The position numbers and the translations under genes are program-made. The notes below the pieces were generated by a model, which was given only the letters and a program-made list of their open reading frames with translations, did not search any database and had not been told where the DNA came from. This document shows, one piece after another, positions 1-61,255 of a stretch of DNA of 64,000 bases. The stretch is from Mobula hypostoma. Taxonomy: Eukaryota. The stretch lies in contig NC_086097.1 in NCBI RefSeq assembly GCF_963921235.1, positions 48,486,001 to 48,550,000 on the forward strand, read 5' to 3'. Every line of letters starts with the position of its first letter. Position 1 is the first letter of the stretch.

Positions 1-2549
1 CAAATTACTGATTTATCAATATTCCATCAAACAGATAGATTGAAATTTATTTCAATAAACTGATTTGTTTATACAGTTTGCAACAACTCTATCTATCTTC
101 AAACCCTTGGTGAAATTAGTAGTACTGTTTAACATGTTCTTTTCAGCAATAATGTTTCATAATAAGTGAAAACATTTTACTTTTTAAAAAATGTTCTGAA
201 TCTTTGATGAGCACTCACAGTAAAGATTAACCCAAGTGGCAAGGTCAAGTAATAAGGAATATTGAGGAAGGCAGGTGGTAGTGAACTTAGAAACTGTCAG
301 GAAAAACTCTGGACCTTAGGGTGAAATTGCTTTCTTAAGAAGTCACACTGCCAGTAAGTGGACAGCAATAGCTAGATGAGAGCTTTGTAGAACTGATATT
401 TCCCAACAAATGGAGGTCAAAACAATAAAAGATATTCATTAACAATGGAACAGTTATGTTACGATGATCTATGTGCTACTGAATCATGAATGATCTATAT
501 CTCTATTGGTGTGGAAAAAACGTAAATAAAAGGAAAAACAAAAGGCATAAATTCCATGAAATTTTCTGATAAGGATGATTTCACTTAAATTGAGTCCCCT
601 GCCAGATTTGTGAAAAAAAACTGGAACAAATTGCTTTAGTGTGCAAATAAGATGCCAACGAGAATGTTTATGCACATGTAAATTGTACCATGCCTGCTGC
701 TTCTGTTGCTGCCAATATCAGGTGCAGTAGATTAGTGTCTGCACTGGGAAGCGAGACAGCAAAGTTGTAAATTGCTTTTTGCTTCTGATAGTGTAAGGAA
801 AACATCCAAAAGAAAGTTTACTGAGCTTCAATGTGCCTTGAGAACAGCTACGGGGCTCCTCAGTACCTTCAGGTTCGGATGAACCTTACTAGACATTAAT
901 CATTGCTTTGCCAAGAACCACAATAACATTAAAAATTCCCTTTCGTCCTCAGCTAAGCTTCCCTGTGACTATCGTCAATAATCTGGTGTTGATGCTTTAT
1001 TTCTTTAATGAGATGTGGGTGTCACTGAGAAGGCAATATTAATTGACCACCTCTTACTGCCTATTTAGCTAAATGTGCCTCAGAAGTCTACTGAGAGACA
1101 ACTACATTTAGTGAGTCTGGATACCATACTGAACAGTGGTGCTAGATTTCCTTTCCTGAGGCAGTTCAGGGAAGCAAAGGAATTTTTACAAGGTAGCTGT
1201 GGTCATCATTACCGATATTATTTTTTAATTGCAGCTTATTTCATGAACCTAATTTAATTATTCAGTAAATGAGCCAATGCTTCAATTTATGTTATGGATC
1301 AAGGATCAAAGATTGACTTTATTTTTAACATTGCACGTATTAGGAATTAGCTGTGGTGTGTTGGTGTGACATGCGTTAAAAAACATTCAATAATTATAGT
1401 AAAGAATTATATAAAAAATAAACTTAGAGGATAAAGTTCAAATATGGACTAAAATGTGCATAATCACATAAATAACATATACTTACAATGTAAACATTGT
1501 AAAAAGAGGTTTTAAGTATTTACAGTGCAGTGCAGTGACCGAGATAATAGATAGAGGAGGTGGGCTGGCTAACTAGAATGGTTGATCATCACTGTTACTG
1601 AACAATAAAAGAAAACACAGGATAAGACACCAAAACACTATGGCCGCCATTTTGGGCAATGCGATTAACTAGATAGGTTATTGTGCAGTTCATATTGTGT
1701 ATATTATTCATTTACTTTTTTATTGTTTGTGCAATTTGTTCTTTTTTTTGCACATTAGATATTTTATGGTCTTCGTTGTGTTGATATTTTTCATAGATTC
1801 TTTTGTGTTTCTATGTTGTATGGATGCCTGCAAGAGGATGAATCTCAGTATTTTGATTATATATGTATGTTGAACTTTAAACTTTGATAGCAGGATAACT
1901 TTATGAATAGAAATGACTCTACTGATCTTCTGTATCACACCAGAAAAACAAAGTTCTGACTAGTCTGTCTGTTGAATGTCAAGTACTGTCTGATGACTAC
2001 AGGCAAGTTCACACAGTCATTTCTATCACTGAAATCATCAGTCTTCTGCAGCACCTGTAGCTAACTACATGCTGTTAGAAAACGTCTCTGTATAGCTCAG
2101 TACATTCAATATCTAAAGGGTTAAATATGTAAGCACTTGATGATCTGCACTATCTTATGATTATTTTCATTTTATTTTAGCTTTATCGCAGATTTCTAGT
2201 TTAAATCAAAAATACAAGATGAATGTGTTTGAATTCCCCGTATTACGAAACAGGTGGAGAGATGCTATGCCTCTAATTTGTTTCAAACACAGTATAAATA
2301 TTAAACTTTCCCTATTAGAAAATCTGATTACCCTGGAGGGCTCTGTAAAGTGAATCACATCGTCCCACAGATATGTCTGGTGTTTTATTAAATCTTACTG
2401 ACCTCTCACTAAAACCAGGATCATCCTCCAGCCAAACAAATGGAATATTCAAAATGACTGTTTTGACACTCAGCCAAGGACATTGTTATTCTTCTATTTG
2501 TGAAGGCTTTAAGTTTTTTTTAACAAATGGAAAGTTGATTTTAAGTGGT

Positions 2550-3150
2550 CAAGCAATGTTAATATTCATTTTTAGAGGACTAGAATATATAAGCAAGGAT
2601 GTAATACTGAAGCTTTATAAGGCATTGGTCAAACCATACTTCGAGAATTGTGAGCAGTTTTAGTCCCTTATCTAAGAAAAGATGTGCTGGCCTAGAGGAA
2701 CTTCACAAGAATTATTTTGGAAATGAAAGGATTAACATATGAGGGCTGTTTGATGGCTCTGAACCTGACCTCATTTATTTAGAAGAATGAGGGGGATCTC
2801 ATTGAAACCGAACGAATTAGGAGAGACCTATATAGAGTGGATGTGGAGAAGTTCTTTCCTATATAGTGGGGGAGTCTCGGACCAGTGGGCACAGGCTCAG
2901 AATAGAGGGACGTCCCTTTAGAACAGAGTTGAGGAGAAATTTCTTTAGCCAGAGCATAGTGAATTTGTGTAATGGCTGAGGAGGCTGTCATTGGGTATAT
3001 TGAAAGGTTCATTAGTAAGGTCATCAAAGGTTATGGGGAGAAGCCAGGAGAATAGGGTTGAGAGGGATAATAAATCAGCTATGACGAAATGGTGGAGCAG
3101 ACATGATGGGCTGAATGGCCTAATTCTGCCTCCTATGTCTTATCATCTTA
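2550..3150 (+). mobile_element. Degenerate CR1 LINE 3' fragment
   Basis: Translates to IFRGLEYISKDVILKLYKALVKPYFENCEQF (CR1 ORF2 C-terminal region), followed by the CR1 3' UTR GGGCTGAATGGCCTAATTCTGC and a TATGTCT-type tail; many stops. Confidence 0.8.
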
Positions 3151-53705: not shown

Positions 53706-54260
53706 GTTCAAAGTAAATTTATTATCAAAGTACATATGTATATGTCACAATATACAACCCTGAGATTCACTTTCTTGTGTGCATTCACAGCAAAGACAAG
53801 GAACACAAAGAAATCAATGAAAGACCATGCCCTACCAGGCAGACAACAATCAATATGGAAAAAATGTGCAAATACAAAAGAGGAAAAAGAAATAATATTC
53901 ATCATCAATCAATAGATAAATAAGCAATAAATATCAGGAAAATGAGATAGAGTCCTTGAAAGTGAGCCACCAGTGGAAACAATTCAATGGTGGGGCAAGT
54001 GAAGTTGAGTGAAGTTACCCTCTGGTTCAAGAGCCTGATGATTGTGGTAACAACTGTTCCTGAACCAGGCTGTGCAGGTCCTGGGTCCCCTGTACCCGCT
54101 TCCTGATGCTAACAGTGAGAAGAGAGCATGGTCTGGGTGGTGGCTATCCCCAACAGCGGATGCTGCTTTGCAGTGATAGTGCACCGTGTAGATGTGCTCA
54201 ATGATGGGGACGGTGTTACCTGCGATGGACTGGGCCAAATCCATTACTTCTTCTAGGGAT
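53706..54260 (-). mobile_element. Rex1/Babar-type LINE 3' end
   Basis: ORF 53984-54304 CKAASAVGDSHHPDHALFSLLASGSGYR; tail AATAAATTTACTTTGAAC on the minus strand. Confidence 0.8.
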
Positions 54261-57185
54261 TTCTTTGTTTTTGTAACTCCAGAAATTAATTGAAAGAAAT
54301 GCATGGGGAGACTGGGATAAACGTGTACTCTTCATTTTTACCTATAGTGAGGTGCACACATATGATATGGTGGCATACTGAAATATGCCATTCACATACT
54401 TTTACATAACCCTTAATTATGTCAACAGAAAAGGATGCTTAATGTCTACAATATTACTGAAGTATTAAATACACAACATTCCTCCCTATTTAGCTATAAG
54501 CTCCAACTCAATAGAAAATGCATCTCAACTAAATACACAGTATACTATATAATACAACATCCATAGCATAGTACATTTTAAATTGTACCATTCAGTCCAA
54601 AAGATTAAATTGCTGTGGAGGATTTATTAATCTTGTGGGATAATGTATTCCTTGGCAGGACAGACTTGAGGCTGTGGAACAATCTCAGGTTCTGGGGCCT
54701 ATTCTGTGTTGGTTGCAGGAATTGACTCAGACTGCAGGATGCGGTTCTGACAGCTCTGGATAGCTTTCTTCTCCTTTCTTCTTCTCACCTACTTTAGCTG
54801 TCTGTTTGGATGGTAAAACAACTCTGAATCCCCTCATAAAGCAACCCCCTTCAAGGCTAGGTTCATCCAGGTGCTGGTAAAAATGGAGGAATTGGAATTT
54901 CTGATGAACATTACAGCCACCTTGGGTTACTACGTAGACTGGAGAATGTGTGGAGTCTTTTCTAGTTTTCCTTTCCATCACATCTACCATAAGAGTGAGA
55001 TTTACAATTTGCACTAGAGAGCAGAAACTTTTTTAGTAAAATTTTCTGGTATTTCCTTTTCCAAGGGTAAACAGGACAATCCATCAGCATTTCCATGATG
55101 AGTCATCCTCTTGAATTTGATCTTGAGAATTGTGCCCTACAAGAAACAGAGCCCATCCCTGCATTCATGCTGTAGCTGCTAGAGGAACTCCCTTCAGTGA
55201 ACTGAAAATGGACACCAGTTTGATGATCAGTAATGAAGGTAAACTTTCTCCCATACAAGTATCGGCTAAAATATTTTACACCCTCAGCCAGACTCTAGGC
55301 CTTTCTGCCAATCTGTGTGTAATTTTTTTTCTCTGCAGAGGTAAGGTAATGTGATGAAAAGGCCATGGGGCGTTCACTTCCATCACTCATTACATGTGAC
55401 ATGACTGCACCTATACCAGAAGGCGAGGCATCACAGGCAAGCTTCATTGGGTGACGTGGATAATAATGTGTGAATACAGTATCTGATGTCACCATTTTCT
55501 TTACCTTTCGGAAAACCACCTCACATTGTTCTGTCCACTGCCATTTCCTCCCGATCTGTTGTAATAAGTTCAAGAGGTTCAGCACAGTAGCCGGGTTTGG
55601 CAGGAACCTGTTGTAGTAATTGACATGTCCTAGTAAGGACTGCAACTATGACATGTCCTTAGGTCTTGGGGCATCCACCATTGCCTGAATTTTCTCAGCG
55701 TATTTGTGCAATTCTTTTGCATCTATAGTGTGAACATGGTAAGTGATGCATGGTTTGAAGAATTCACACTTGATGCATTTTGCTCTGAGCCCATAATCAC
55801 CTAATATTTTTAACACTGTCCTGAGATTTGAGATGTTACTTGTCATCCTTACCAGTAACAAGCATATTATCCAGGCAACAACAAGCATCAGGACCTCCTT
55901 AACTCACCTAGTCCATAGTTTTCTGCCAGACTGCAGGTGCAAATGCTACACTAAAAATAAGCCTATTATAGTGATAAAGCCTATGGTGAGTGTAGCCCCC
56001 GGTAAGCTTCAGGCTCGCTCAGCTCGCTTTCCTCTAGGGGGAGCAGCCTTCAGCCCCGCCAAACTGAGTAATCAAGTTTGTGTAGATGCTGTGTGATGTT
56101 CCCCACTCCGCCAAATAACAGAACAGTACACCATATGCGATTAAATAATTAGTCTTTCTAAGTATTTACTGGAACTATGTAATTAATAGAGATACAATAT
56201 AAAAGGAAAGTAAAAGGCGCTAGACTTATCAAATTTCAACCACTTCGTGCACAACCTTTGGAGCTCAATTAACAGTCTTCTTTCCCCCATTCGATCTTCT
56301 CCGGCCGCCTCGACCCGCTGCCTGGGATCAACCATGGTGGTCGGCCAGATGCTCCACACGAGTCTGTTCTCGTCTCCTCTCCTTGCTGAAGACCCTGGGC
56401 CTCAGACTCTTGCACAGGGTCCGTTCTGTCACCCAGTTTACAGCATCATGTCTCCTCTCTCTGTCCCCATCGCACCTTCTGCCACAAAGCCCACGAAAAA
56501 CAATAGCTTACCAACACACGAATAGTATCTATCCCAATTGGTTAGCAAATGAATACAATTCTCTCTATCAGTAATTACAACCCAAACAAGCGGCTATAGA
56601 GAAGCACTTTCTCAGCAGTTAGCATAACAAAGAAGCCATTCTATTAGCCTTAGCAGTAACATAAAAGAAGAAACCTCTTACATTCTCCCCCCACCAAATT
56701 TAGTCATGTCCTCAACTTCTAAATAACTCACCAACCCTTCCTGCAGTCACAGAAACTCAATCCAGGTACAAACAGTGACATTGCTCCCCAAACAGTGGAC
56801 CTTACGCCCTGTTCCTCAGGCGCTACATAGGCCAAACTATCTGGGAGTTTCCTAATCCTCCGAGACTTCCGTACCCCCTCACCTAAACCCTTCAGGCTCG
56901 GACACTACTGGGGATACCTCGGGTCTGCTTGCCAAATCCTCTCTCAATCTCTCACTCATGCCCCCACTGCAACTCGAGGCCCCCTGTCCCATGTCCAGGC
57001 CCCCACTTCTTTTCCTTCAGGGTCCTGCTGTAACCCAGGATGCCCACAGATAGCCCTCCTCAGTACCCCTGACTCAGTGGCAGAAGGGCCAAAAGTCTCT
57101 TCATCCAACAAGGGAAAGTTAGCGAAAGGCAGCATGTACCACACATCCAGCACATCATCCTTCAAATCCAAACTCTTCCCCATTT

Positions 57186-57620
57186 CCTCAGTTGGTAGCT
57201 GCTGTTTGATTTTCTCCAAACTGAAGCACTTAGCCTGGGCTGCCTCTGCAGCGTCTTCAGCCTCCGGCAATCAAGACGTCAGCATCTTCTTTGGCTCCTC
57301 TGCCTCCAGCCGCAGCTGCAGCACTTCGTGTTCATCTCCATCTGGAATGCAATTACACCACCAGCTTCTTCCAATATGTTCTGGATCGATTTCTTGAGTT
57401 TCTGCTGATCCTTTCAAAGTTTGGTCATTGTTTCGTCTCTCTGGATTAATTCATCAGTAAATGACCGCAGTTTTGGCTCGGAATTCCATTTCCCCGTCTC
57501 CACTTTGACGAGCGTGGACTCCAGTTCTTCAATGGTTGTCCCAAAATTGCAGCCCTCAGTCTCCAGCCTGCATCTCTGAGTGTTCAGTTCAGCGGTGCAA
57601 ATCTCCTCACTCAGGAGCTG
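57186..57620 (-). pseudogene. Captured fragments of class II (sarcomeric) myosin heavy chain rod coding sequence
   Basis: EEICTAELNTQRCRLETE..IEELESTLVKVETGK..EPKLRSFTDELIQRDETMTKL, LEEAGGVIAFQMEMNTK and [34 protein letters not shown] match three separate MYH rod segments in the correct order. Paralogue not determined. Confidence 0.88.
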
Positions 57621-58867
57621 TGACTTTCTCCAGACCTGGCACTCGTCCAAAGAAAGTTTTACTTTGTCAATCCCTAGTCGCCTGGGATCCCTCACTCGCC
57701 TCACTTCATAGTCTCCCAAGGCGAATCCAAACCCTAGGCGATCATCCACATACGCCAAAGCTCCAAACACCTCCACATCTCCCATGGTTTTCCCATGCCC
57801 CACAGGAAGGTTGCAGGGGCTCCAGATATGCCTTGTGGCATCTTTTCAGACCAGAAGAATTCTAGGGGACCTATAAAGGCCGCCTTCTCCTTGTCACCCT
57901 CACTCATTGGGATCTGGCAACATCCACTCCTCAGATCCAGCACATTAAACCACATTGCACCATTCAAACAGGCCATCGCGTCTTCGGCCCTCAGGACTGT
58001 ATACTGGTCAATGAGTGCACCTGTTCAGAGTCCTATAATCCACACGCACACTGCCTATGTCTTCCACGGCTGCAGGGGCCAGTCCAAACAGCTCTCACCC
58101 GGCTCCTCCTGGCAGGCCCCCATGCCTCCTCACCAGTGAGGTGTTGGTCCCCTCCAGAATCGAAACACTGCCCGTCGCACCAGGGTTCAGACACATCAGC
58201 ACTAACGATTCATGACCCTCTGACCCTCACACATTGGCCTCCAAGAACTCCAGTTTCACTGACCAATAACCGTCATCTGGATAATCACTGGCATTGGTAC
58301 CCCAAATCTCCAGTGCCCTTAATGTTTTCAAGGGTAAATGCTTCAGAAACCAGTTGTAAAATGAACTGGACAACAACTTGACCTGCGCCCTGGTGTTGAG
58401 GATGGCTTTAGCATAGCTTCTATCTATCTGTAATGACACTCGAGGGCATGGTCCCTCTAAGCCTTCAGGAATAGGGTCTTTTCCTTTCAGGAGTTCCTTG
58501 GAACATTGCTGGGAACATGATCCCTCAGAGACCCCAAGCTGTTCCCCCACTGGGCCTCCACTAAGTTTCCCGACACCTCTGATCAGCTGAACAACTGAGG
58601 GAGGGGCTGATCCCCTTAAATGATCCCTCTGGCACTGCAAGCAATTTAGCTGCCCCCCTAGCCAGAGAAGATACACAGAAAGGTTTTCCCCAATCTCCTG
58701 ACACAGGTATGGAAAGCCCCCCCAGGTGCTGCATTTTACTTTCAGTTGAATGAAACTCATTTTCCCCCCATTTTCAGATAACTGGCAGCTGTCACTACGG
58801 GGTAATTGAACCTGACAGTTCTAACACTGTCAACAGCCCACCTACTCAAACTCTCAACCAATCCCTG

Positions 58868-59251
58868 TCACTCTCTCTCAACCAAGCACTGCCACTCATC
58901 TAACAACTGAGAGATCCGTTCCGCCCACATCTCGTAGGCCTCCGCTCCTTTAGGGGTGGACAATATCCCAAAAGCCAGGCGGAGCCTACCATAGCTGGAA
59001 CATTTATTTGCCGACACTACCTCCGAATCAGACCACTCTTTCCTCTCTCTCCTAACAGTATGGACAGCCCATGGTCCCGCCTCACCCGGGGCACCAATAG
59101 ACACTGGCCGTCCCACCACCATTTCATCAGCGCTAATCTGAACTCGAACAAAGACCTCTGGGGTACCAACAGCCACCCCACCCAACATGCATGCAGTAAC
59201 AACCAGCAATCCCACAGAGGCACACCAGCTTTCCGTCCCCACAGCATGCAT
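58868..59251 (-). pseudogene. PNMA/Ma-like Gypsy gag remnant
   Basis: ESWC...ACMLGGV N-terminus and [36 protein letters not shown] resemble the YRxLRxFSG..P..GEE.F..W......EW block of PNMA-type gag. Confidence 0.75.
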
Positions 59252-60149
59252 AATTTAAAGAGGGCGATCACACAGCTTCCTACAAAAATCCATATTCCGG
59301 ACGAGTAACCCCACAATGTAGCCCCGTGGTAAGCTTCAGGGTCGCTCAGCTCACTTTCGTCTAGGAGGAGCCACCTTCGGCCCCGCCAAACTGGGTAATC
59401 AAGTTTGAGTAGATGCTGTGTGATGTACCCCACCCCGCCAAATAACAGAACAGTACACCTTATGTGATTAAATGATTACACTAAGTATGTACTGGAATTA
59501 TGTAATTAATAGAGATACAATATAAAAGTAAAAGATGTCAGACTTATCAAAGTTCAACCACTTCATGCACAACCGTTGGAGCTCAATTAACACAGTCTTC
59601 TTTCCCCCATTCGATCCCCTCCGACCCCCTCAACCCACCACCTGGGACCAACCACAGTGGTCGACCAGACGCTCCACACAAGTCTGTCCTCGTCTCCTCG
59701 CCGAAGACCCTGGGCCTTGGACTCCCACACAGGGTCCGTTCTGTCACCCAACTTACAGCATCACGTCTCCTCTCTCTGTCCCCATCGCGCCTTCTGCCCC
59801 AAAGCCCGCGAAAACATTAGCTTACAGACACACAAGAAAGAATAACTTCTATCCCAATGGGTTAGCAAATGAATACAATTCTCTCTATCAGTAATTATAA
59901 CCCAAACAAGCAGCTATAGAGAAGCACTTTCTCAGCAGTTAACATAACAAAGAAGCTATTCTATTAGCCTTAGCAGTAACATAAAAGAAGAAACCTCTTA
60001 CATGAGAAAACTTTGGACTCTTCTTCCATCTCCGATTAGCGCTTATTGTGGGGTCCTTGTTTTGAGAATGATTCATCTTACGGTGCTGCTCGGTCGATCT
60101 ACCAATATTCTGTTGGAATGCCAATGAATAAACTATTATTGGTGCCTCT

Positions 60150-61255
60150 ACAAGGGAGTGTCATTTCTCTGCACCTGGGTGCAGACATTTCTCAGTGCAC
60201 ACCATGACAGTGGGTACCTCAGACTGACAAACAAGAGGTTAAAGATATCAGTGAGCTCTTCAGCCAGTATATAAGCACAGGTCTTTAGTACTCTGCCAGG
60301 TACCCCATCTAGGCTGGATGTTTTCTGTGTGTTCACCCTTCTCAATGAAGCTCTCCCACTGACCTCAGACTGAAATAACAGGGTCAACTGGAATATTGCT
60401 AGTGTCTTCCACAGTGAAGACTATGCCCAACATCTCTATAAAATTACAAAGTTATTACTAAAGTACATATATGTCACCATACATAACACTGAGATTTGTT
60501 TTTTCTGCAGGCATACTCGGTAAATATGAGAACCATGATTCAATCATTGATTGAACCCAAAGGGAAGGGCAAGGAACCGATGTGCAAAAGGCAAGAAACT
60601 GCAAATACAAAAGAAAAAAAGTTAAAAAATAAGCAATAAATAATGAGAACATGAGATGAAGAGCCCTTGAAAGAGAATGCATCGATTGTGGGAACAGTTC
60701 AGTGAAGGTGAGTGAAATGATCCCACTGGATCAAGAGTCCGAGGGGTAATAACTGCTCCTGAATCTGATGGCGCGAGTCCTGAGGCTCCTGCACTGTCTG
60801 ACAGCAGAAGTGAGAAGACAGCATGACCTGGGTGGTGGGGTTCCTTGATGATGGCTGCTGCTTTCCTGTGACAGTGCTCCATGTAGATGTGCTCAGCATA
60901 ACCCGTAATGGACTCAGCTGATTCTACTACATTTTGTAGGCTTTTATATTATGAGACATTGTTGTTTCTATACCAGGCCATGTTGCAACTAGTCACTATA
61001 CTGTACACTGCACATCTACAGAAGTTTACCGATGTTTTAGTTCACGTGCTGTATCTACGCAAACGTTTGAGAAAGTGGAGCCATTGCTATGCTTTCTTCG
61101 CAAAGGCTCTTACATGCTCAACCCCTGACAGATCCTCTGAAATAACACTAAGGAATCTTAAGTTGCTGACCCTCTCCACCTGTGATCCCCCACTGAGGAC
61201 TGGCTCATAGTCTTCTGGTTTCCTCCTCCTGTAGTCAATAATCATCTCCTTGGTG
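60150..61255 (-). mobile_element. Degenerate Rex1/Babar LINE fragments (about 60150-60430 and 60445-61255)
   Basis: LRRVNTQKTSSLDGVPGRVLKTCA..L..ELTDIFNL; HCHRKAAAIIKEPHHPGHAVFSLL; Rex-type 3' UTR. Confidence 0.75.

Follow-up and report, generated by a model that had tools for sequence, protein, structure and literature searches.

LTR-mediated retroposition is known in animals, under the name of 'pseudo-LTR retrotransposons' (Tan et al. 2016, Genome Res 26:1663, PMC5131818). In the retrocopies described there, a partial, intron-free host mRNA replaces part of the internal ORF, both LTRs are kept, no poly(A) is present and the chimera is capable of further rounds of retroposition, with microsimilarity at the junctions as a hallmark. 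The cases covered by that paper are young and occupy one or a few sites, with two fly retrocopies at more than one site, and mRNA capture by animal LTR elements has been documented mostly as young, single-site retrocopies. We describe here a Ty3/Gypsy-like family of rays that is alike in structure and in its further rounds of retroposition, and that differs in yielding 872 to 3,131 first-look candidates per query, in comprising several deletion subfamilies and in occurring in four ray species. Its insert derives from the rod of a sarcomeric myosin heavy chain, and the case shows that such capture can give rise to a vertebrate family that persists for long and reaches high copy numbers (in the manta and devil rays and the stingrays).

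Gene capture by plant LTR elements has reportedly been reviewed in the literature, and Bs1 of maize is a low-copy element, in contrast to the high copy numbers of the myosin-bearing family. Bs1 carries pieces of three cellular genes (Elrouby and Bureau, as cited in PMC5131818). Like the family described here, it is non-autonomous, has coding sequence transduced from the host at the pol position of an LTR element, and still transposes; it differs in belonging to a plant rather than a vertebrate and in holding pieces of several genes rather than one.

In acutely transforming retroviruses, spliced host sequence replaces replication genes, and the defective genome depends on a helper. The capture of v-onc sequences has been treated by Swain and Coffin (1992) and by Goodrich and Duesberg (1990), both as cited in PMC5131818. 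The likeness lies in the spliced host sequence standing in place of replication genes and in the dependence of a defective genome on helpers. Unlike these viruses, the myosin-bearing family is germ-line and endogenous, carries a structural coiled-coil fragment with no sign of a selected activity, and has no envelope gene or infectious phase in evidence.

Among vertebrates, a HERV-K with captured FAM8A1 is likewise an LTR element with a processed host gene copy, and differs from the amplified myosin family in being a single untranscribed locus (Jamain et al. 2001, as cited in PMC5131818). Intron loss (in two relatives, L069 and L068), replacement of the ORF with both LTRs retained, and further retroposition are all found in the myosin-bearing family, and its structure and inferred mechanism match LTR-mediated retroposition as described by Tan et al. 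2016 (PMC5131818), a mechanism that is already known. The original prediction knew of no described myosin-carrying vertebrate Gypsy element, and a literature search agreed with it: no myosin-carrying LTR element was found, the ray and shark genome papers returned being without myosin or Gypsy and a newt genome paper having myosin as a stain only.

Architecture of the window copy and identity of its insert

The window, a stretch of 64,000 nucleotides of Mobula hypostoma (NC_086097.1, positions 48,486,001 to 48,550,000 of the forward strand), contains at 55991-60002, on the minus strand, a dead, decayed copy of a non-autonomous Ty3/Gypsy-like LTR retrotransposon family that is 4,012 bp (~4.0 kb) long. 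It had been credited with both LTRs, a PBS, a PPT and a TSD; LTRs, PPT and TSD were all read directly, and the PBS stands as a PBS-like site. The LTRs (687 and 692 bp, located by direct-repeat blocks and direct reading) both run TGTAAG...GGCTACA, with TG..CA ends, and are 90.5% identical (613 matches, 64 mismatches and 25 gap columns; K2P 0.102). The 4-bp TSD CTCA (minus strand) is found at both element ends. Three bases past the 5' LTR lies the PBS-like TGGGGTTACTCGTCCGG, which may resemble a tRNA-Pro primer site, and the PPT GGTGGGGGGAGAA adjoins the 3' LTR. In element order, the features are as follows.

60003..60006, minus strand: 5' TSD CTCA (direct reading; same four bases after the 3' LTR)
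59316..60002, minus strand: 5' LTR, 687 bp (direct-repeat blocks, ends read)
59296..59312, minus strand: PBS-like site TGGGGTTACTCGTCCGG (direct reading)
58871..59254, minus strand: open frame in gag position, 128 aa (ORF list; called gag from position alone)
58230..58820, minus strand: open frame in protease position, 197 aa (ORF list, position)
58084..58085, minus strand: site of a private 207-208-bp deletion in the RT N-terminal region (comparison with other copies)
57621..58024, minus strand: RT remnant in two frames, ending after KLSLDECQVW (RVT_1 match below cut-off)
57381..57620, minus strand: myosin piece 1 (gapless PDB alignment; ~MYH7 924-1003, P0029 ~915-991)
57295..57380, minus strand: myosin piece 2, LEEAGG...EMNTK...LEAEE (P0029 ~1138-1172)
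57196..57294, minus strand: myosin piece 3 (MYH7 ~1385-1424; PDB matches)
56696..57195, minus strand: tail of unassigned origin (common to all subfamilies and stingray copies)
56683..56695, minus strand: polypurine tract GGTGGGGGGAGAA (direct reading)
55991..56682, minus strand: 3' LTR, 692 bp (direct-repeat blocks, ends read)
55987..55990, minus strand: 3' TSD CTCA (direct reading)

The gag-position and protease-position frames matched no Pfam family, and the DNA of the latter shares 85% identity with the region where the long open frame of L068 begins. The RT remnant is real but weak, RVT_1 matching 57737-58024 with E 1.8e-5 and 25 bits against a cut-off of 29.6, and its YVDD codons lie at 57741-57752. 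This remnant is all that the window copy keeps of pol, and it is the domain order of the relatives that fits Gypsy elements and retroviruses, not Copia. The tail has no Pfam match; its DNA is 77-84% identical to that of L068 and L069, and it is present in the stingray proteins P0045, P0046 and P0049.

The 207-208 bp missing at 58084..58085 are present in all four copies checked (L003, L004, L019 and L029), and the alignments of other copies break at the corresponding element position, 1919/1920. The RT/myosin junction of the window copy lies within about 57603-57620. Downstream of it, in-frame TGAs interrupt piece 1 (57414-57416) and piece 3 (57271-57273), and a frame-shifting 13-nt deletion lies in piece 2 at 57323/57324, the 13 nt being present in L004 and in contigs of two runs. 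On direct reading, no A-run follows the myosin-derived part. Vertebrate neutral rates are 1-2.5e-9 per site per year, with slower rates reported for cartilaginous fishes. With these rates and an LTR K of 0.10, the window copy would be about 20-50 million years old, and older if the slower cartilaginous-fish rates hold.

Other repeats surround the element. Just past the 3' LTR, 55298-55903 (minus strand) holds a different Gypsy-type pol (RT_RNaseH_2, E 3e-19; RT_RNaseH, E 1e-9), which is unrelated to the myosin-bearing family. On the other side, a 90-aa open frame at 60148-60420 (minus strand) contains ..DGVPGRVLKTCAYILAEELTDIFNLLF.., by which, judging by eye, we take it to resemble the N-terminal part of a LINE reverse transcriptase. 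A direct repeat of 87 nt, 78% identical, flanks the element at 54114-54200 and 60809-60895 with 6.7 kb spacing and may represent two copies of another repeat.

The window peptide of 57186-57650 (minus strand), with X at the TGA stops, was searched against the PDB by phmmer. Its residues 11-95 align gaplessly with Myosin-7 924-1008 (E 5.3e-6), which bears out the proposal that the RT remnant is followed by about 80 residues of sarcomeric myosin rod; 11 of the 12 PDB sequences at E<=1 are striated-muscle myosin heavy chains, and the other is unrelated (E 0.2). Residues 41-90 of the frame 56959-57450 align to MYH7 1377-1426, with E 2.2e-6 against an MYH7(1361-1425) chimera and 1.2e-4 against full-length MYH7, and all ten PDB matches of this frame are myosins. 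Muscle myosins alone give significant PDB matches to the window peptides. A second and a third myosin stretch had also been proposed, and the third is upheld by these values. The second, LEEAGGVIAFQMEMNTK compared with a LEEAGG..EMNKK stretch, is a weak match by itself in the window (domain 3 of Myosin-4) and is clear in the open-frame sister P0001 (47% identity over 77 residues to a shark myosin-16-like protein), the piece 3 of which is 59% identical to P0029 1365-1413. The three pieces are colinear with the rod and lie in sense orientation relative to the element.

The Pfam profile Myosin_tail_1 (PF01576), put forward as a check on 57186-57620, did not recognise the insert: window peptides, P0001 and L068 had no match, and L069 stayed below significance with 13.8 bits (E 0.013), the cut-off being 38.1. 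The Pfam searches also returned weak matches to Tropomyosin, Spc29 and CdvA. Since the cut-off is missed, the insert is a decayed, internally deleted derivative rather than a member of the family in the Pfam sense. The decisive evidence for its identity comes from the longer relatives, namely the DNA match to host exons described below and the protein match of L069, which is 48% identical to P0029 881-1126 over 246 contiguous residues (E 3.6e-50). As judged from these comparisons, the insert is colinear with a sarcomeric myosin heavy chain rod and derives from a myosin gene.

Family size, longer relatives and internal deletions

A 571-bp query covering RT, myosin and tail gave 872 first-look candidates in the 3.48-Gb genome. 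Of these, 40 were scored, and all 40 cover at least query positions 19-559, the same RT-myosin-tail stretch; apart from the self-match, the other 39 show 85-89% identity and are spread over many contigs. The whole-element query gave 11,003 candidates, 35 of which were scored. All 30 loci of window type are colinear with P0001, and only three of them are without a stop or frameshift.

Target sites were compared in the window copy and nine copies that have their 5' end at query position 1-2 and their 3' end at hand. These ten copies have ten different flanks and ten different 4-bp TSDs, which are perfect in six (CTCA, TGTA, AGTA, TATA, GAGT and CTGT) and match in three of four bases in the other four. 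It is confirmed that the chimera transposed, and its copies would occupy hundreds or thousands of sites. The original prediction of a mobile, non-autonomous LTR family with captured myosin, recognisable by a junction search that finds many loci with their own TSDs, agrees with these results; a myosin segment unique to one copy and carrying its own poly(A), which it had named as counter-evidence, is not what is found, the block being shared across copies with no A-run after it.

Over the whole of their overlap with the window element, two longer relatives show a DNA identity of 77-85%, and myosin piece 1 of the window copy is 82-84% identical to the same piece in both. L068 (G000:C58) has an open frame of at least 642 aa that passes through protease and RT remnants and the start of RNase H; its myosin consists of residues ~915-1078, LEEAGG..ELKES and piece 3, followed by the tail. 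The L068 subfamily has 3,131 candidates, and among the 40 of them that were scored, the 39 non-self matches are 90-94% identical. L069 (G000:C5) has RNase H (RT_RNaseH, PF17917, E 1.1e-7) followed by 246 contiguous myosin residues, which jump at ..VEELEE straight into piece 3 and the tail, without piece 2. RNase H thus persists in the longer relatives, and their myosin extends over as many as 258 contiguous residues.

A third element, L071 (G000:C76:3023700-3025000), has a 1,714-aa open frame with RT_RNaseH, then Integrase_H2C2, then rve. The RNase H of L069 is 74% identical to that of L071, and the likeness ends ~15 codons before the L069 myosin, which begins ~15 codons past the ..NIDxD end of RNase H. 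None of the three element types read has an integrase, and both LTRs are kept. Since the relatives keep RNase H and the likeness to L071 stops near the myosin start, we conclude that the capture replaced integrase. A GACGAG shared at the 5' capture junction is possible, the comparator being an integrase-bearing relative only 76% identical in DNA.

The longer myosin and the RNase H of the relatives also indicate that the RT/myosin junction of the window subfamily is a secondary deletion, and that the gaps between its three pieces represent internal deletions of a once longer insert. The claim that myosin stands in place of RNase H and integrase is therefore sustained for integrase, and for RNase H it holds in the window subfamily only, the relatives retaining that domain. 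Deletion variants at repeated coiled-coil words provide a natural record of deletion and recombination during reverse transcription.

Relatives with an RNase H 64-81% identical belong to open frames that reach 1,714 aa; integrase-bearing ones are found, for instance, near G000:C76:3.02 Mb and C40:64.40 Mb. The abundant Gypsy family to which L071 and others belong has open frames of 1,000-1,714 aa with intact RNase H, integrase zinc-finger and core domains, and elements of the L071 type are candidate helpers.

The parent gene

The protein query P0057 led to G000:C68:14612355-14612513, where an exon of 150 bp (C68:14612356-14612505) is bounded by canonical AG and GT splice sites; the next exon, C68:14615495-14615596, follows after ~2,990 bp. 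L069 holds the two back to back, matching the first with 96.6% identity over 147 nt and the second with 92.9% over 99 nt; L068 does likewise, at 79.9% and 81.6%. As exons 2,990 bp apart adjoin in both elements, their captured insert is intron-free here. These matches place the parent gene of the captured myosin at G000:C68, about 14.61 Mb. Neither the window element nor L004 has a match to the two exons; the window subfamily lost the block that they occupy, and it is L068 and L069 that connect it to the parent. No further parent exon was found in the 6.3 kb upstream (C68:14606000-14612355), and a 40-nt pattern from L069 found itself and one sister copy only, with no further parent exon.

The original prediction had placed the source by its likeness to MYH7, of which the sarcomeric part stands and the MYH7-like part gives way to a paralogue related to myosin-16. 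The parent exons are 59-64% identical to the shark myosin-16-like P0029, whereas P0029 shares 77-94% identity with another gene, at C36 near 112.7 Mb; the source is thus a divergent, myosin-16-related sarcomeric paralogue and not the orthologue of the named myosin-16 (MYH16). Over 175 residues of L069, a region independent of the shared-word search, proteins named myosin-16 reach 150-155 bits (53-57% identity) against 114 bits (47%) for one myosin-7-like comparator. In a ranking whose candidates were chosen by shared words in one stretch, the closest full-length relatives of the source likewise appear to be named myosin-16, not MYH7.

Other loci were rejected as the source. The C36 gene at ~112.7 Mb is a paralogue only, with 76.6% identity over 64 nt to L004; one of its exons starts with ATTGAGATG directly after the AG and an exon ends ..EELEETK, positions that show the introns of a relative and not those of the parent. 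Four myosin genes found with PF01576 (C45, C36:126.09 Mb, C68:25.5 Mb and C80; 131 kb) have no DNA likeness or useful protein likeness.

The distances to the parent exons are unequal, at ~4-5% for L069 and ~20% for L068, despite the shared start, 3' junction and tail, which is not what one capture followed by clock-like divergence would lead one to expect. As to hypermutation, there is no G>A or A>G excess among 37 parent-to-L068 changes.

Two further observations concern the surroundings and relatives of the parent locus. At G000:C68:15305205-15899595, ~0.7 Mb from it, lies a tandem array of at least nine sarcomeric myosin copies, ~70 kb apart and 62-69% identical to P0029. P0057 itself, a 225-aa protein of Narcine bancroftii named myosin-6-like X4, is 60% identical to the L069 myosin frame with one 29-residue gap, close to 90% over the last 86 aligned residues by our own count, and 90% and 80% identical to the two parent exons; it is either an orthologue of the parent gene or an element copy.

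Origin of the chimera, alternatives and occurrence in rays

The analysis shows the structure of the element, its membership of a family whose copies inserted independently, the loss of introns, the gene of origin and an occurrence in four species of ray. Taking these together, we consider it very probable that a Gypsy-like element captured a spliced sarcomeric myosin mRNA, was amplified as a family and later underwent internal deletions. In the ancestor, reverse transcription would have joined element RNA, just past RNase H, to the spliced mRNA of the C68 parent, presumably by template switching, and would then have returned to element sequence, with at least rod residues ~881-1413 taking the position of integrase. 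The chimera would have kept LTRs, PBS and PPT and could have been copied in trans by integrase-encoding relatives, spreading to hundreds or thousands of sites. The subfamilies would have arisen by additional internal deletions, several of them at repeated ELEE-type coiled-coil words, the window type losing the C-terminal part of RT, RNase H and two blocks within the myosin and being left with three colinear pieces. The myosin part of the window copy would be a passenger without function.

Read-through capture of the retroviral-oncogene type, in which an element in or upstream of the myosin gene gives a read-through or deleted transcript that is spliced and packaged and 3' non-homologous recombination restores the 3' LTR, would give the same product and differ in the first step only. 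An insert that is sense-oriented, intron-free and truncated at both ends fits this route, which Tan et al. 2016 (PMC5131818) name as an alternative; however, in the paralogue L049 an exon starts ~9 residues upstream of the capture start, and a 5' junction on an exon boundary is therefore unsupported in that paralogue. We regard read-through as the unlikely form of the first step.

The near-parental myosin of the L069 type could be a later 'refresh', in which the RNA of an old element underwent homologous template switching with co-packaged parental mRNA. Such an event would suit the 93-97% identity of L069 to the parent exons against ~80% for L068, the near-equal identities of L069 to the window type in myosin (84.5%) and tail (84.4%), so that its myosin is no closer than its tail, and the jump from ..VEELEE to piece 3 that leaves out piece 2. 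Yet L068 and L069 have myosin extending upstream as far as the same ..QV.(D/N)L.E stretch, which suggests a shared old 5' junction, and in the one L069-type copy read the uniform distances fit a single origin with unequal rates equally well. A refresh is accordingly held to be improbable.

The preferred account of a captured and amplified mRNA treats the myosin part as a passenger; it is doubtful that the coiled coil was instead kept for the benefit of the element, perhaps by letting a fusion protein oligomerise. Long frames in the L068 subfamily run via the protease and RT remnants through myosin and tail (L068 itself has at least 642 aa, and the longest listed has 677 aa); by our own count, no stop falls inside the match in 40 of 59 such rows, and pairwise dN/dS is 0.5-0.9 in the myosin parts against 1.1 in the RT remnant. 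The 59 rows, however, are the best-scoring ones and biased to intact copies, and neutral decay of copies 6-10% apart would, on a rough estimate, leave a median frame of ~360 aa. The dN/dS values come from single decayed copies and local alignments with transition bias ignored, and the frame is intact in only 3 of the 30 window-subfamily loci. An extended version, to which we give little credence, is that an L068-type master encoded an open fusion of ~680 aa (protease and RT remnants, then ~280 aa of myosin coiled coil and tail) whose rod aided entry into helper particles, and that the family may also recombine repeatedly with the parental mRNA, keeping some lineages near-parental. If an L068-type fusion did serve the element, a host structural domain would have been recruited as a transposon protein.

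A chimera formed in the DNA itself, with a LINE-made processed myosin pseudogene inserted in one Gypsy copy and the nested copy becoming the master, is very unlikely. Intron-free myosin stretches like processed pseudogenes do exist in the genome, but the insert has no 3' UTR, poly(A) or TSD of its own and ends mid-rod, and element sequence is replaced rather than interrupted, with integrase absent in every type seen. The example at hand, G000:C18:48745314-48746731, is intron-free, matches Myosin_tail_1 positions 514-993 with 432 bits, has 6 stops in its main piece and has the look of a normal processed pseudogene of myosin that does not belong to the element family. Finally, the reading of the myosin likeness as generic coiled-coil composition (to which the Myosin_tail_1 failure and the weak Tropomyosin, Spc29 and CdvA matches might point), or of the block as private to the window copy, is refuted by a family member with 96.6% DNA identity to a spliced host myosin exon, by the L069-P0029 alignment (E 3.6e-50 over 246 residues) and by the presence of the block in 40 of 40 scored matches, and its probability is negligible.

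Protein annotation extends the family beyond the window. P0001 is 100% identical to the translation of L004 and is filed as Mobula hypostoma 'myosin heavy chain, skeletal muscle-like'. A HMMER search against 1.84 billion representatives gave 49 matches with E<=0.001, and identities were taken for the 20 of these 49 that rank directly after P0001. They include annotated element ORFs, often named as myosins, from two species of Mobula (M. hypostoma and M. birostris) and from the stingrays Hypanus sabinus and Hemitrygon akajei, and the stingray ORFs share with L068 the tail and the deletion junction that joins ..SLTAAFQV to.VEEA.G. At least five of the short models inspected (P0001, P0092, P0045, P0047 and P0050) carry element parts and are named myosins, an annotation hazard in which element copies are mislabelled as myosin genes.

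No RNA record is listed for the element stretch. In contigs of four runs (from two organisms, and possibly DNA), all 30 bins of the stretch are covered at a likeness of at least 85% and both junctions are bridged. In Hypanus sabinus, P0049, named succinate dehydrogenase assembly factor 3 (SDHAF3) isoform X1, consists of element sequence in residues 55-163; these last 109 residues correspond to myosin pieces 2-3 and the tail, are 64% identical to L068, and reflect either exonisation or mis-annotation.
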